Source: a virus (taxonomy: Duplodnaviria > Heunggongvirae > Uroviricota > Caudoviricetes). From it: a stretch of 19,722 nucleotides of DNA. A model generated the notes under the pieces. The model had not been told where the DNA came from, ran no database searches, and saw nothing but the letters and a program-made list of their open reading frames with translations. The stretch lies in IMG/VR virus record IMGVR_UViG_2623620491_000017; one strand, written 5' to 3'. Below, in pieces: positions 1,051-6,669 of the stretch; the first letter of the stretch is position 1, and each line of letters starts with the position of its first letter. The translations under genes were made by a program, and so were the position numbers.

Positions 1051-1344
1051 TTATCCAATCCTTTTCTCGGAGTGGTTGGACTCTGTTGACTCTGGCCCAA
1101 TGTGCGCGAGAGCCGGTGCGATTTGTCCTGCGTCCGGCGCGGTTTTATCTGTCATAAGCCATAGAGCATATTTTTGGAATGTGGGATGCATAGTGATTTT
1201 TAGCAAAGCTGTGCCACCGGGTTCAAAGTTTCCTCCTTCATATTTTTTAAGTGTGCTTAGCGGTAACTCTATGATTTCACAGAATTTTGATTGGCTTAGC
1301 CCTTCAGCCTCACGCAAGGCCTTAATCTTTTCGCTTAATTTCAT
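1051..1344 (-). CDS. C: Immunity repressor (P2 C-like), 97 aa
   Basis: Small ORF directly upstream of int on the same strand and divergent from the early operon, the position of the P2-type C repressor. Palindromic operator-like repeats lie in the divergent intergenic region. Family assignment by synteny and size only. Confidence 0.7.
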   Translation of the reverse strand: MKLSEKIKALREAEGLSQSKFCEIIELPLSTLKKYEGGNFEPGGTALLKITMHPTFQKYALWLMTDKTAPDAGQIAPALAHIGPESTESNHSEKRIG

Positions 1345-1403
1345 TTGACATGGTGCCTATATAGGGACTAAATTCCCTCAAAACTGGAACCTATATAGGT
1401 TCC
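1345..1403. promoter_or_regulatory. Early promoter/operator region: TTGACA at 1345-1350, -10-like TAAATT at 1369-1374, two copies of palindromic core CCTATATAGG (1356-1365 and 1390-1399; second lies in perfect 18-bp palindrome GGAACCTATATAGGTTCC 1386-1403)
   Basis: Read directly from sequence. The 10-bp core is repeated exactly 34 bp apart, and the first copy sits in the spacer of the candidate rightward promoter, as expected for a repressor operator overlapping the early promoter. Confidence 0.55.
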
Positions 1404-1480
1404 ATTGATTTGAGAATAAACCAGCGTCTAAACGGTTTTGAGTGGTTTAGAAAGGGCTGGATCCTATGAGGGTACCATAT

Positions 1481-1753
1481 ATGGACGCTGAAAATTATGT
1501 GATTCAGTATCCGCTTGATGCGGTTCATGTGGATAAATTTGCTGATTTATTAGGGAAGCCAAAGACAGCCGTCAGTGAAATGGTGAAGGCAAATAAATTA
1601 CCAATTATTGAATTGCGTGATCCTTGCAAACCGAAGGCTCGTGCCGGTGAAAAATGGGTTTTCATTCCTGAGTTTAATCGCGCTGTACGTGAGGCGTTTT
1701 ATAACCGACCGGTTGAACAGCGTGATGCATGGCTTTTGTGGATGGGGTTGTGA
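1481..1753 (+). CDS. cox: Cox-like excisionase / early-operon regulator (alternative in-frame start at 1466)
   Basis: First gene of the rightward operon, divergent from C; about 90 aa as for P2 Cox. GAGGG (1468-1472) lies 8 nt before ATG 1481. Confidence 0.65.
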   Translation: MDAENYVIQYPLDAVHVDKFADLLGKPKTAVSEMVKANKLPIIELRDPCKPKARAGEKWVFIPEFNRAVREAFYNRPVEQRDAWLLWMGL

Positions 1754-2423: not shown

Positions 2424-2486
2424 ATAATTAACCAGAGTTTTTAACGCACTTAATCGTGCGGGGCTTCTTTTTGCCTGGAGAAAGTC

Positions 2487-2711
2487 ATGCATACAGTTTC
2501 TGAAAATCAGTGCGGTAAATACGCATTACTGCTGCAACAGGCCAGAACCGAAGCACAGGCTGACGCTGCGACGCGCTTTTCTTCTCATCTTGACTCCATG
2601 ATTCGCCACATCACAAAGGCGGAGTTATCCCGCGTGGAGATAGTCGAGCTGCTCAGTCAGGAGTCGGAAAAATTTCACAATATCGGATTGTCTCGCGGGG
2701 AGGTGCTTTGA
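2487..2711 (+). CDS. Hypothetical early protein (74 aa)
   Basis: GGAGAAAG SD immediately upstream of ATG 2487; translationally coupled to the next ORF; lies within the B-A interval of the early operon. Confidence 0.55.
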
Positions 2712-3013
2712 TGTCCTGTTCTCATTCAGTTGTATTACTGAATAACGCCTTAAAAATCGCCGTTATGAAAAATGGCGATTTGTCTCTTATTCAACTTTGT
2801 CTTGATAAAGAAAAACGCGACATCACTGAATCTGTTATCGCGATTTATCAGAATGAATTAAACCTCATGTCTGATGTGGTCAATTTACTTGTTAAACGCG
2901 CTGTATTCCACAAGCAAATTTCCTCAGTGGATGAACTGACAAAATTAACGACAGAACTTGCCAGCTATTGCGCTGATGAATTTAAAAAACTGAACGACAA
3001 AAGGAACTGGTAA
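2711..3013 (+). CDS. Hypothetical early protein (100 aa)
   Basis: GGGGAGG SD 7 nt upstream of ATG 2711; stop overlaps the start of the next ORF. Confidence 0.55.
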   Translation: MSCSHSVVLLNNALKIAVMKNGDLSLIQLCLDKEKRDITESVIAIYQNELNLMSDVVNLLVKRAVFHKQISSVDELTKLTTELASYCADEFKKLNDKRNW

Positions 3014-3237
3014 TGCCGGACAACGTAGATTTTATTCAGGAACAACAGGCTGAATTACTGGAGCGCCAGATTAACGCGGCAAGGGTAAAACATTGCGGTG
3101 TTTCTTCGCTGGTTTGCGAAGAGTGTGATGCGCCAATACCTGCTGCCCGTCGTGCGGCTTATCCGTCAGCCACGCGTTGTGTTTCCTGTCAGTCAGTCTT
3201 TGAAGCAAAAAACAAACATTACCGGAGAACGGCATGA
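3013..3237 (+). CDS. TraR/DksA-family C4 zinc-finger protein (74 aa)
   Basis: Translation contains CEEC-N17-CVSC (CxxC...CxxC), the TraR/DksA-type zinc finger; AAGGAA SD before the ATG. P2 encodes a TraR-like small ORF at this position. Confidence 0.7.
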   Translation: MPDNVDFIQEQQAELLERQINAARVKHCGVSSLVCEECDAPIPAARRAAYPSATRCVSCQSVFEAKNKHYRRTA

Positions 3238-3509
3238 GTATTCGTATTGAAATTGGCGAACGTTATGTCGTTACCAGTGACAGCTTTCAGTTTGTTCTCC
3301 ACGAGAAAAAGAGAGCGGAAAGCGGTAAAAACGCCGGTCAGGAATGGCTGTCGGTGGTTGGTTATTACCCGAAATTAAGCCAGCTCGTTTCCGGCCTGAT
3401 GCATCACGATATTCTGACCGGAAGCGCAAAGTCTTTTGCTGATTTAAACGCGCAGGTTGAGCAACTCAGCAAGCGTTGTTCAGAGGCTTTTGGCTCATAT
3501 GGCCGTTAA
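3234..3509 (+). CDS. Hypothetical early protein (91 aa)
   Basis: GGAGA SD 5 nt upstream of ATG 3234; stop overlaps the A start. Confidence 0.55.
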   Translation: MSIRIEIGERYVVTSDSFQFVLHEKKRAESGKNAGQEWLSVVGYYPKLSQLVSGLMHHDILTGSAKSFADLNAQVEQLSKRCSEAFGSYGR

Positions 3510-5775
3510 AGCCTCCGGGCGTTTTGTCCCTCCGTCAGCATTTGCCGCAGGCACCGGTAAGGCGTTTACCGGTGCTTATGCATGGAACGCGCCACGCGAG
3601 GTCGTCGGGCGCGAAAGACCCCTTACACGTGACGAGATGCGTCAGGTGCAAGGTGTTTTATCCACGATTAACCGCCTGCCTTACTTTTTGCGTTCGCTGT
3701 TTACTTCACGCTATGACTACATCCGGCGCAATAAAAGCCCGGTGCACGGGTTTTATTTCCTCACATCCACTTTTCAGCGTCGTTTATGGCCGCGCATTGA
3801 GCGCGTGAATCAGCGCCATGAAATGAATACCGACGCGTCGTTGCTGTTTCTGGCAGAGCGCGACCAGTATGCGCGCCTGCCGGGGATGAATGACAAGGAG
3901 CTGAAAAAGTTTGCCGCCCGAATCTCATCGCAGCTTTTCATGATGTATGAGGAACTCTGCGATGCCTGGGTGGATGCGCATGGCGAAAAAGAATCGCTGT
4001 TTACGGATGAGGCGCAGGCTCACCTGTATGGTCATGTTGCTGGCGCTGCACGTGCTTTCAATATTTCCCCGCTTTACTGGAGAAAATACCGTAAAGGGCA
4101 GATGACCACGAGGCAGGCATATTCTGCCATTGCCCGTCTGTTTAACGATGAATGGTGGACTCATCAGCTTAAAGGCCAGCGTATGCGCTGGCATGAGGCG
4201 TTACTGATTGCTGTCGGGGAGGTCAATAAAGACCGTTCTCCTTATGCCAGTAAACATGCCATTCGTGATGTGCGTGCGCGCCGCCAGGCAAATCTGGAAT
4301 TTCTTAAATCGTGTGACCTTGAAAACAGGGAAACCGGCGAGCGCATCGACCTTATCAGTAAGGTGATGGGCAGTATTTCTAATCCAGAAATTCGCCGGAT
4401 GGAGCTGATGAACACCATCGCCGGTATTGAGCGTTACGCCGCCGCAGAGGGTGATGTGGGGATGTTTATCACGCTGACCGCGCCGTCAAAGTATCACCCG
4501 ACACGTCAGGTCGGAAAAGGCGAAAGTAAAACCGTCCAGCTTAATCACGGCTGGAACGATGAGGCATTTAATCCAAAGGATGCGCAGCGTTATCTCTGCA
4601 GCATCTGGAGCCTGATGCGCACGGCATTCAAGGATAATGATTTACAGGTCTACGGTTTGCGTGTCGTTGAGCCACACCACGACGGAACGCCGCACTGGCA
4701 TATGATGCTTTTTTGTAATCCACGCCAGCGTAACCAGATTATCGAAATCATGCGGCGCTATGCGCTCAAAGAGGATGGTGACGAAAGAGGAGCCGCGCGA
4801 AACCGTTTTCAGGCAAAACATCTTAACCGGGGCGGTGCTGCGGGATATATCGCGAAATACATCTCAAAAAACATCGACGGCTATGCACTGGATGGTCAGC
4901 TCGATAATGATACCGGTAGGCCGCTGAAAGACACAGCTGCTGCTGTTACCGCATGGGCGTCAACGTGGCGCATTCCGCAATTTAAAACGGTTGGTCTGCC
5001 GACAATGGGGGCTTACCGTGAACTACGCAAATTGCCTCGCGGCGTCAGCATTGCTGATGAGTTTGACGAGCGCGTCGAGGCTGCACGCGCCGCCGCAGAC
5101 AGTGGTGATTTTGCGTTGTATATCAGCGCGCAGGGTGGGGCAAATGTTCCGCGCGATTGTCAGACTGTCAGAGTCGCCCGTAGCCCGTCGGATGACGTTA
5201 ACGAGTACGAGGAAGAGGTCGAGAGAGTGGTCGGCATTTACGCGCCGCATCTCGGCGCGCGTCATATTCATATCACCAGAACGACGGACTGGCGCATTGT
5301 GCCGAAAGTGCCGGTCGTTGAGCCTTTGACGTTAAAAAGCGGCATCGCCGCGCCTCGGAGTCCTGTCAATAACTGTGGAAAGCTCACCGGTGGTGATACT
5401 TCGTTACCGGCTCCCACACCTTCTGAGCACGCCGCAGCAGTGCTTAATCTGGTAGATGACGGTGTTATCGAATGGAGTGACCCGGAGGTCGTGATGGCGC
5501 TCAGGGGCGCATTAAAACACGGACTGAGAACACCAAATCGTCAGCAAAGAAACGGAATCCCGTTAAAACCGCATGAAATTGCACCATCTGCCAGACTGAC
5601 CAGGTCTGAACGATTGCAAATTACCCGTATCCGCGTTGACCTCGCTCAGAACGGTATCAGGCCGCAACGATGGGAGCTTGAGGCGCTGGCGCGTGGCGCG
5701 ACCGTAAATTATGACGGGAAAAAATTCACGTATCCGGTTGCTGATGAGTGGCCGGGGTTCTCGTTACCCATTTGA
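3499..5775 (+). CDS. A: Replication initiation protein A (HUH rolling-circle endonuclease), about 758 aa
   Basis: Translation contains the HUH motif (PHWHMMLF) and the paired-tyrosine motif YIAKYISK typical of phiX174/P2 A-type initiators. Size and position match P2 gpA. Start set at ATG 3499 (MAVKASG...) rather than the upstream in-frame extension from 3457. Confidence 0.9.
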   Translation: MAVKASGRFVPPSAFAAGTGKAFTGAYAWNAPREVVGRERPLTRDEMRQVQGVLSTINRLPYFLRSLFTSRYDYIRRNKSPVHGFYFLTSTFQRRLWPRIERVNQRHEMNTDASLLFLAERDQYARLPGMNDKELKKFAARISSQLFMMYEELCDAWVDAHGEKESLFTDEAQAHLYGHVAGAARAFNISPLYWRKYRKGQMTTRQAYSAIARLFNDEWWTHQLKGQRMRWHEALLIAVGEVNKDRSPYASKHAIRDVRARRQANLEFLKSCDLENRETGERIDLISKVMGSISNPEIRRMELMNTIAGIERYAAAEGDVGMFITLTAPSKYHPTRQVGKGESKTVQLNHGWNDEAFNPKDAQRYLCSIWSLMRTAFKDNDLQVYGLRVVEPHHDGTPHWHMMLFCNPRQRNQIIEIMRRYALKEDGDERGAARNRFQAKHLNRGGAAGYIAKYISKNIDGYALDGQLDNDTGRPLKDTAAAVTAWASTWRIPQFKTVGLPTMGAYRELRKLPRGVSIADEFDERVEAARAAADSGDFALYISAQGGANVPRDCQTVRVARSPSDDVNEYEEEVERVVGIYAPHLGARHIHITRTTDWRIVPKVPVVEPLTLKSGIAAPRSPVNNCGKLTGGDTSLPAPTPSEHAAAVLNLVDDGVIEWSDPEVVMALRGALKHGLRTPNRQQRNGIPLKPHEIAPSARLTRSERLQITRIRVDLAQNGIRPQRWELEALARGATVNYDGKKFTYPVADEWPGFSLPI

Positions 5776-5844
5776 GTAAAAACACAACGTGATTTGATAT
5801 GGCATTGAATGGCTTATGCGGAGCAGTTATGGGGCAGCAGAAGG

Positions 5845-5882
5845 TCAATAGCATGCTGAATTAGAAGGCTAAATGCTATTGA
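5845..5882. repeat. Perfect 10-bp inverted repeat TCAATAGCAT / ATGCTATTGA separated by 18 nt
   Basis: Read directly: 5845-5854 is the reverse complement of 5873-5882. No flanking T-run, so it is not a terminator; a protein-binding site or RNA stem-loop is possible. Confidence 0.5.
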
Positions 5883-5990
5883 GTGACTAGCATGTCGGTA
5901 AGGACAGCCGTTTGATCCGGGTCATAAAAGGCCATCCATTTAGTCTAATAAAATCATTGCGGGTAACCTTATGTCGACGCATAATTCGTC

Positions 5991-6005
5991 TTGAGCGAAG
6001 TCTTG
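5991..6005. repeat. Direct repeat copy 1 (TTGAGCGAAGTCTTG), in the 3' tail of the early operon about 35 nt before the terminator
   Basis: Exact 15-mer also present at 6255-6269 with unrelated flanks. Confidence 0.6.
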
Positions 6006-6035
6006 TCAGTCTTTCATCGTATTGATGATGGGCGC

Positions 6036-6065
6036 AAAAAAACCACCCTGGCAGGTGGTTTTTTT
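6036..6065. terminator. Bidirectional rho-independent terminator (A7-CCACC-ctggca-GGTGG-T7)
   Basis: GC stem 6043-6047/6054-6058 flanked by an A-run (6036-6042) and a T-run (6059-6065), so it can terminate the rightward early (A) transcript and the leftward small-peptide transcript. Confidence 0.7.
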
Positions 6066-6077
6066 GTTTGAAGCATA

Positions 6078-6191
6078 TTAAAGCATAATGCTGACATTGA
6101 TATTACTGACGTTTACTGACAAACCACTCGGACTACCGTTTGGATAGCCAAAGAGGGCCAGAACGAGAATGCAGTAATAGCATTTCTTCAT
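6078..6191 (-). CDS. Candidate 37-aa hydrophobic peptide (MKKCYYCILVLALFGYPNGSPSGLSVNVSNINVSIML); possible small membrane toxin or exclusion peptide
   Basis: GGAGG (reverse complement of 6196-6200) lies 4 nt before the ATG. The N-terminal MKK is followed by about 12 hydrophobic residues and an uncharged Ser/Asn-rich tail. The gene ends 12 nt before the bidirectional terminator and has the orientation of lysogenic-conversion cargo in this slot. No homology search was possible. Confidence 0.45.
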   Translation of the reverse strand: MKKCYYCILVLALFGYPNGSPSGLSVNVSNINVSIML

Positions 6192-6254
6192 ATTGCCTCC
6201 TGTAAGTAGAGGGCAACTTCCACCGGTATATGCGCTTCTTAGGTGGAATGACTT

Positions 6255-6269
6255 TTGAGCGAAGTCTTG
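6255..6269. repeat. Direct repeat copy 2 (TTGAGCGAAGTCTTG), about 65-80 nt upstream of the peptide start codon on the coding strand
   Basis: Exact copy of 5991-6005. Confidence 0.6.
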
Positions 6270-6330
6270 CCCTGAAATAATGCTCTGTTTAAACGCAAAG
6301 TGATTTGGCATATCACCGAACAGAGAGCCG

Positions 6331-6385
6331 GAAAAACACAACATATAGTATGTCGTTGTTTCTAGACATACATTCTATGTTGTGT
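6331..6385 (-). repeat. Long imperfect inverted repeat (arms 6336-6354 and 6365-6385: 10 bp + internal loop + 7 bp) followed on the minus strand by TTTTT; terminator-like insulator or operator
   Basis: Read directly. The arms are AT-rich, so terminator function is uncertain. It sits between cos and the small-peptide gene. Confidence 0.35.
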
Positions 6386-6669
6386 AACAAGGGCTTTGCA
6401 TTAAACATGTTTGAGATTTTATTGATGTAGCTCAAAGTAAAAAACAGAGACTACGGATGATAAGGTCTTGAAAGCAATGTAAATTTTTTAAAGTTGCCAA
6501 TTGCTTAAAAATGTACAGTTGCGGTATGGCGTACTTAAAAAGCTATGCATGCAACAAGTGAATGTTTTTGCATGCGTTGGGGATGTCCGTTCAGGCTGCG
6601 TGCGGTCAGGACTGGTGCGGATCCATAGTATCTATGCAACTGCATTAAAACCGCCCCGTGAAGCGGGCG

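Follow-up and report, generated by a model that had tools for sequence, protein, structure and literature searches.

The window, the whole stretch of 19,722 nucleotides that was analysed, carries a small gene that we identify as the orthologue of phage P2 orf82, and we put at about 90% the probability that its product is a phage TraR-family protein, a ppGpp-independent relative of DksA that acts on the host RNA polymerase in the way set out below. Family membership, residue conservation, predicted architecture, and genomic context were established here, and the RNA polymerase binding and promoter effects that we would attribute to the window variant are carried over from the 97%-identical P2 Orf82. 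A single open reading frame on the plus strand fills 3013-3237 exactly, from an ATG at 3013 through 74 codons to a TGA at 3235-3237 (ORF list and translation), precisely where the original prediction had placed the gene. The product of 74 amino acids, MPDNVDFIQEQQAELLERQINAARVKHCGVSSLVCEECDAPIPAARRAAYPSATRCVSCQSVFEAKNKHYRRTA, contains cysteines at residues 28, 35, 38, 56, and 59, four of which make up the zinc-finger motif C35xxC38, a 17-residue spacer, and C56xxC59; the predicted CxxC-N17-CxxC pattern was thereby reproduced by script. Two alternative reading frames within the gene, 3071..3235 on the minus strand and 3098..3250 on the plus strand, were treated as mechanical. Some database homologues (P0025 and P0096; …FLRWFAKSV…) do enter the +1 frame at 3098-3250 (+) midway, only in frameshifted entries; these are versions of the same gene that carry a frameshift or an assembly error, and they give no evidence for an overlapping gene. 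Truncated or frameshifted copies were numerous among the database homologues of the product.

Profile searches assigned the protein to the TraR/DksA C4 zinc-finger family. Pfam PF01258 (zf-dskA_traR) matched residues 34-64 with 44.6 bits (gathering threshold 24.9, E = 1.4e-11), and the NCBIfam model TIGR02419, titled [quoted passage not shown] (C4_traR_proteo), matched residues 3-64 with 78.5 bits (cut-off 59.7, E = 4.2e-22), covering its 64 positions from end to end. Both scores lie above the curated cut-offs, so that the family assignment, which the original prediction had proposed to check by an HMM search, holds. A further match, to PHROG 54 (“DksA-like zinc-finger protein”), extended over residues 1-73 with E = 9.8e-33, and the zinc-finger pattern is not due to chance. 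The product scored under the cut-offs of the equivalog models for F TraR (NF010268, 44.7 versus 108 bits), YbiI (NF008243, 46.1 versus 96 bits), and DksA (TIGR02420, 19.7 versus 115.5 bits; NF033459, 27.4 versus 105 bits). Because of these scores, we regard it as a member of the TraR subfamily that is an orthologue of neither F TraR, YbiI, nor DksA; identities as DksA proper and as YbiI were both ruled out by the profile scores.

The window protein shares 72 of its 74 residues (97%) with P2 Orf82 (NP_046793, P2p38), which the P2 reference record annotates as “DksA-like zinc-finger protein” flanked by Orf81 and Orf83. The two differences, V30 and S32 here versus A30 and A32 in P2, are conservative and fall within the linker that precedes the finger. 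At the equivalent positions, TraR carries Ile and Val, and since these positions vary in the family, we expect V30 and S32 to bring no functional change. The P2 gene matches the window gene in length, is likewise flanked by orf81 and orf83 upstream of A, and overlaps its neighbours in the same manner. The window gene is thus the P2 orf82 orthologue, ordinary and already known.

The biochemistry of the P2 protein has been published. P2 Orf82 was one of five TraR homologues selected by Gopalkrishnan et al. (2022, mBio, PMC9239242), where its expression from pTrc with IPTG complemented a dksA deletion for growth in minimal medium. Once purified, it inhibited rrnB P1 without ppGpp (IC50 about 250 nM), roughly 5-fold less potently than TraR, and activated thrABC and argI about 2- to 4-fold; against labelled DksA, it competed for RNA polymerase with a half-maximal value of 0.65-1 uM, a range like that of TraR (PMC9239242). 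The authors assigned orf82 to the Pe early operon, and their text credits Liu, Saha and Haggard-Ljungquist 1993 with the observation that over-expression of P2 Orf82 leads to growth arrest (PMC9239242). As that paper presents it, lambda Orf73 is the only homologue for which an increase in phage yield was measured (PMC9239242). The earlier view of the host target as incompletely understood is therefore outdated: P2 Orf82 binds in vitro to the DksA site of E. coli RNA polymerase (PMC9239242), and with these binding and promoter assays in print, the target is already established. This is the one point on which the original prediction has to be corrected; all the other parts of its interpretation that could be checked here were borne out. 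A literature search for newer work on P2 Orf82, including its in vivo role, returned, besides the mBio article of 2022, only a review from 2024 that cites it.

Structural comparison pointed to TraR as well. A sequence search of the PDB returned TraR in complexes with E. coli RNA polymerase as its top matches (5w1s_M, E = 5.6e-10; 6n57_M, E = 1e-9), followed by YbiI (2kgo, the third-best match) and then, weakly, DksA. In an AlphaFold2 model built from 13 homologues (mean pLDDT 76.3, pTM 0.42), the product was predicted to fold into a helix at residues 3-25, a non-helical zinc-finger region, and a second helix at residues 57-73. In cryo-EM structures, TraR is divided into TraR-N (2-27), TraR-G (28-57), and TraR-C (58-73) (PMC6970531), and from the agreement of the predicted helices with these domain limits, we take the two proteins to have one architecture. 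Foldseek against the PDB likewise ranked TraR first (6n57_M, E = 2.3e-4, probability 1.00, TM 0.50, rmsd 14 A), with 5w1s_M, YbiI, and DksA-family chains only down to rank 11 and nothing else significant. The rmsd of 14 A is so large because the helices are oriented differently in the free model than in RNA polymerase–bound TraR, and for this reason the match supports the topology only.

The residues on which TraR-family function depends are largely in place. The DxxDxA motif at the tip of the N-terminal helix reads D3-N-V-D6-F-I8 in the window protein. An alignment with F TraR, read from plasmid F (WP_001278689), and lambda Orf73, an unannotated ORF in the exo-xis region, showed D3 and D6 to be invariant across the three proteins, and both are needed for function in TraR and Orf73 (PMC9239242). 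The alanine at position 8 of the motif is replaced by Ile in the window protein and in P2 Orf82; its absence from P2 Orf82 was pointed out by the authors of PMC9239242, who suggested that it may account for part of the lower potency. Since P2 Orf82 is active nonetheless, A8 is not strictly required. All four finger cysteines are invariant in the 13 homologues, as are R46 and R47, which align with TraR R48 and R49, residues that contact the beta' rim helices and beta' Si3, respectively (PMC9239242). Altogether, M1, D3, D6, the four cysteines, P41, I42, R46, and R47 are common to the window protein, TraR, and Orf73. TraR-family action requires the Si1 and Si3 elements of RNA polymerase (PMC6970531, PMC9239242), and the TraR interface with Si3 has three central residues, E46 and K50 among them. 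These two are replaced by A44 and A48 in the window protein, and its Si3 contact may thus differ in detail, though P2 Orf82 activates in vitro.

A small protein with four finger cysteines in a P2-type phage could also be read as a DNA-binding activator of specific phage promoters, similar to Ogr or P4 Delta. P2-type phages activate their late promoters with Ogr, itself a small C4 zinc-finger protein of about the size of the orf82 product, and regulation of their own phage's promoters by some TraR homologues was left possible in PMC9239242. Against this stand the failure of the product to match Ogr/Delta (PF04606) in a Pfam scan at E <= 0.01, set beside the PF01258 and TIGR02419 scores, and the cysteine spacing and flanking PIPxARR, which resemble TraR. 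Moreover, P2 Orf82 competes for the DksA site on RNA polymerase, and TraR-family proteins, as they are described in PMC9239242, work without binding DNA. We regard an Ogr-like activator as largely refuted by the missing PF04606 match together with the competition for the DksA site, and as extremely improbable. The reading as a TraR-family protein that acts on RNA polymerase fits these data, and the features on which it draws are collected in the table.

Table. Positions of the orf82 orthologue, its parts, its neighbours, and its candidate expression signals in the window.
Feature	Position	Strand	Basis
Pe-like early promoter TTGACA-18-TAAATT, would drive cox through A	1345..1374	+	Consensus scan match only
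Terminator-like hairpin, gap between B and orf80	2445..2460	+	Scan; by position
orf80 orthologue, DUF2732	2487..2711	+	PF10809; synteny
orf81 orthologue, DUF5405, directly upstream of orf82	2711..3013	+	PF17399, 112 bits; P2 annotation
Shine-Dalgarno-like AAGGA, 7 nt before ATG	3001..3005	+	Read from sequence
orf82 orthologue, TraR-family zinc-finger CDS including TGA	3013..3237	+	PF01258, TIGR02419, PHROG 54, identity with P2 Orf82
N-terminal helix, aa 3-25	3019..3087	+	AlphaFold2 model; alignment with F TraR and lambda Orf73
C4 zinc finger C35xxC38-N17-C56xxC59	3115..3189	+	Script; PF01258 aa 34-64
R46-R47, counterpart of TraR R48 and R49	3148..3153	+	Alignment; homologue conservation
C-terminal helix, aa 57-73, counterpart of TraR-C	3181..3231	+	AlphaFold2 model; PMC6970531
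ATGA overlap: orf83 ATG 3234-3236, orf82 TGA 3235-3237	3234..3237	+	Read from sequence
orf83 orthologue, DUF5405, directly downstream of orf82	3234..3509	+	PF17399, 52.7 bits; P2 annotation
Replication gene A (rolling-circle nickase), last gene of the operon	3499..5775	+	ATG 3499 matches P2 gpA start; annotation of related phages

The gene lies in the early operon of a P2-type phage. It shares its orientation with cox, B, orf80, orf81, orf83, and A, and these genes follow the Pe-like promoter at 1345-1374, which agrees with the predicted early-operon placement. The Pe-like element is located just past the start of the divergent C repressor gene, the same relative position as that of the annotated Pe of P2. 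The hairpin between B and orf80 occupies a site where P2 has a “putative rho-independent terminator” and where tR1 is annotated in 186; expression of orf80 to A would have to proceed by read-through of this hairpin (2445-2460). Adjacent reading frames overlap throughout this part: orf80 and orf81 meet as TGATG, the orf81 stop codon (TAA, 3011-3013) shares one base with the orf82 ATG (TAATG), and orf83 and A share 11 nt. The ATGA overlap between orf82 and orf83 indicates translational coupling, and the four small genes and A are thus packed for such coupling. A scan for Rfam families found none in the whole window at gathering thresholds, and hence no RNA element overlaps orf82.

The two genes on either side of orf82 are remotely related to each other. 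Orf81 and Orf83 gave no BLASTP alignment, although both match DUF5405, and because they share this domain at a similarity that BLASTP does not detect, we take them to be remote paralogues that bracket the TraR-like gene. PHROGs labels both as “replication initiation protein,” a label that appears unverified.

The whole window is about 97% identical to Peduovirus (P2-type) phages across 87-98% of its length; for the 1.2 kb around orf82, identity stands at 97.6-98.2% with many such phages from Escherichia, Yersinia, and Salmonella. The gene order runs from int (-) and the C repressor (-) through cox, an orf78-like gene, B, orf80, orf81, orf82, orf83, and A, beyond which a short variable region is followed by packaging, capsid, lysis, and tail genes. 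The window is thus a P2-type (Peduovirus) phage or prophage. That P2-like phages carry such a gene at this place, as stated in the original prediction, is borne out by P2 Orf82 (97%) and by homologues in L-413C, 186, ENT90, and Serratia prophages.

Several other parts of the window were inspected in passing. Between the A stop codon and the cos/Q region, positions 5776-6540 are low in GC (35-44% versus about 52-59% on either side) and correspond to the position of orf91, tin, and old in P2, here spanning only about 0.75 kb. This segment matches three Peduovirus-type records (two of which are the same genome) at just 86-88% and contains one ORF of 88 amino acids, 6078..6344 (-), with no PADLOC match; it resembles a nearly empty or atypical form of variable “hotspot” cargo. 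Downstream of A in the Serratia prophages with the 55%-identical homologue, we found a weak SMODS domain in one strain (7635-8225 of L007 and 7645-8225 of L008 were examined) and, in the other strain, AAA_21 with faint AAA_15 and SMC_N matches, and this differing cargo fits a hotspot of variable defence genes in P2-like prophages. The immunity repressor, at 1051-1344 (-), is an HTH_3 protein of 97 amino acids with weak RstR-family similarity (P2 C has 99), Cox, at 1466-1753 (+), has 95 amino acids versus 91 in P2, and the whole-window match to phage pro483 begins only at about 1756. From these lengths and the start of the pro483 match, the immunity region is suggested to be unlike that of some close relatives.

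From P2 to 186, ENT90, and Serratia prophages, with protein identities of ~45-55%, the order DUF2732, TraR-like, (DUF5405), A has been kept. Serratia prophages (54-56% identity) have RepB, DUF2732, TraR-like, DUF5405, and GPA, and ENT90 has DUF2732, TraR-like, and A. In 186, the order is tR1, Orf79, Orf80 (TraR-like), Orf81, Orf83, Orf84, and A, where Orf79, judged by position, takes the slot that a DUF2732 gene fills in the Serratia prophages and ENT90. In P2-type phages, the window included, orf81 (DUF5405) separates the DUF2732 gene from the TraR-like gene. The slot just upstream of the replication gene is thus conserved across Peduoviridae, and this conservation is the only lead past the published picture. 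As a separate observation, the DUF2732 gene overlaps and directly precedes the TraR-like gene in ENT90, Serratia prophages, and many Klebsiella and Salmonella P2-like phages, and the two may form a conserved pairing (loci noted: 2487-2711 in the window, 2268-2728 in L004, 2274-2725 in L005, and 3708-4225 in L007).

This fixed position next to A raises the question of whether the protein, still as an RNA polymerase binder, was selected for phage DNA replication, for example by tuning transcription around ori and gene A or relieving transcription-replication conflicts within a conserved module of DUF2732, TraR-like, DUF5405, and A, and not for a general shut-down of rRNA synthesis. The gene order has been kept at about 45-55% identity, all junctions overlap, suggesting co-expression in fixed ratios, and DksA is reported in PMC4666387 to help avoid replication-transcription conflicts. 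Synteny within a compact early operon, however, is weak evidence for a functional link, lambda Orf73 raises burst size from a different context (exo-xis), the replication-initiation labels of the neighbours are unverified, and the small ORFs of 186 from Orf79 to Orf84, including the TraR-like Orf80, are annotated as “not essential.” We consider a dedicated replication role quite unlikely. Similarly speculative, and also unlikely, is a four-gene module (DUF2732, DUF5405, TraR-like, DUF5405) coupled to A, to which the TraR-like protein may belong, in place of being a host-shutoff factor on its own, and in which its neighbours might retarget or modulate its action on RNA polymerase; if it existed, such a module could, for example, coordinate transcription with rolling-circle replication. 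The kept gene order and the overlapping junctions would be compatible with it.

The gene is widespread. The 225-nt sequence was present in 1603 of 5426 complete E. coli genomes (~30%), nearly always on the chromosome, and at least 10 E. coli copies were 100% identical, named “TraR/DksA family transcriptional regulator” by PGAP; identical or near-identical copies occurred in phages of E. coli, Salmonella, and Yersinia as well as in E. coli genomes. By tblastn, the protein was found in 168 phage records, 75 of them at >90% identity (P2-type) and the remaining 93 at ~44-51%, including 186 (Orf80), PSP3, SopEPhi, and P2-like phages of Klebsiella, Salmonella, and Erwinia. A tblastn search of plasmids (E <= 1e-5) recovered only P2-like prophage copies and not F TraR. 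A distant relative of 88 amino acids in Xanthomonadales has a non-phage chromosomal setting. PADLOC gave no defence-system match for Orf82 and its neighbours.

The gene could in principle also be a decaying or functionless passenger ORF in a prophage, silent or without activity and kept by hitch-hiking. The 186 homologue is annotated as non-essential, damaged database copies are many, as noted above, and pN/pS among the window, P2, and L-413C copies (Nei-Gojobori) was 0.3-0.9, which is not clearly below 1, with 2-6 substitutions per pair. As 2-6 changes per pair are too few to reveal selection, our conservation argument is built on the distant homologues instead. These are full-length and motif-intact at 45-55% identity across Peduoviridae genera, with all functional residues invariant. 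The gene also has a good Shine-Dalgarno sequence and a coupled start, about 1600 complete E. coli genomes have an intact copy, and the P2 protein is active when purified (PMC9239242). In view of the deep conservation of the functional residues and the activity of the purified P2 protein, we give next to no credence to a functionless passenger and return to the reading as an active TraR-family regulator.

Comparison with known systems shows what sets the window protein apart within this family. E. coli DksA has a C4 zinc-finger domain and shares the secondary-channel site on RNA polymerase with P2 Orf82. It comprises 151 amino acids, carries a two-helix coiled coil, and is fully active only with ppGpp; the orf82 product has a single N-terminal helix in place of the coiled coil. 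F TraR (PDB 5W1S, 6N57, 6N58), the best PDB match both by sequence and by fold, resembles the orf82 product in size (73 versus 74 amino acids), in D3/D6, the finger, PIPxARR, and the helix-globule-helix layout. Yet, the two are only 38% identical, with A8, E46, and K50 in TraR versus I8, A44, and A48 here, and the TraR gene resides in the conjugative tra operon (traV-traR-traC), whereas orf82 belongs to a phage early lytic operon. The homologues from 186 (Orf80), ENT90, PSP3, Klebsiella, and Serratia are of the same family and occupy the early-operon slot after DUF2732 and upstream of A; they are ~45-55% identical and lack a DUF5405 gene between the DUF2732 and TraR-like genes, and 186 Orf80 has a complete DxxDxA motif where the orf82 product has I8. 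Lambda Orf73 is 29% identical to the orf82 product, with D3, D6, the C4 finger, and the RR pair in common, and is encoded in the exo-xis region, whereas orf82 lies beside the replication gene. In the results that PMC9239242 gives for it, Orf73 inhibits rRNA and r-protein promoters in the absence of ppGpp, causes the host to grow more slowly, and increases the burst size. Unlike P2 Orf82, it shows little or no activation of thrABC and argI (PMC9239242).

Taken together, these data suggest the following mechanism. After infection or induction, Pe would transcribe orf82 within the cox-B-orf80-orf81-orf82-orf83-A operon, and the gene would be translated through coupling to its neighbours. The 74-amino-acid protein would then bind the host RNA polymerase and not DNA, in a contact geometry that we infer by homology from the TraR cryo-EM structures, where the N-terminal helix reaches to the active site, the globule sits on the beta' rim helices and Si3, and the C-terminal helix contacts beta lobe-Si1, which rotates by 18 degrees (PMC6970531, PMC9239242). 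By this homology, the N-terminal helix with its D3 and D6 tip would enter via the secondary channel toward the active site, while the zinc-finger globule, through R46 and R47, would rest on the beta' rim helices and Si3, and the C-terminal helix would touch beta lobe-Si1. Initiation kinetics would be shifted such that promoters whose open complexes are unstable, namely those for rRNA and ribosomal proteins, are inhibited without ppGpp and some amino-acid biosynthesis promoters are activated, likewise independently of ppGpp. During lytic growth, host RNA polymerase and resources would probably be moved from ribosome synthesis to phage development, a presumed benefit to the phage for which lambda Orf73 serves as the analogue.

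Published work already covers the gene, the family to which it belongs, and the biochemical activity of its product, and there is little here that is new as a discovery. The value of the finding lies in a well-founded annotation, namely, that ~30% of complete E. coli genomes carry the gene for a ppGpp-independent regulator of RNA polymerase.
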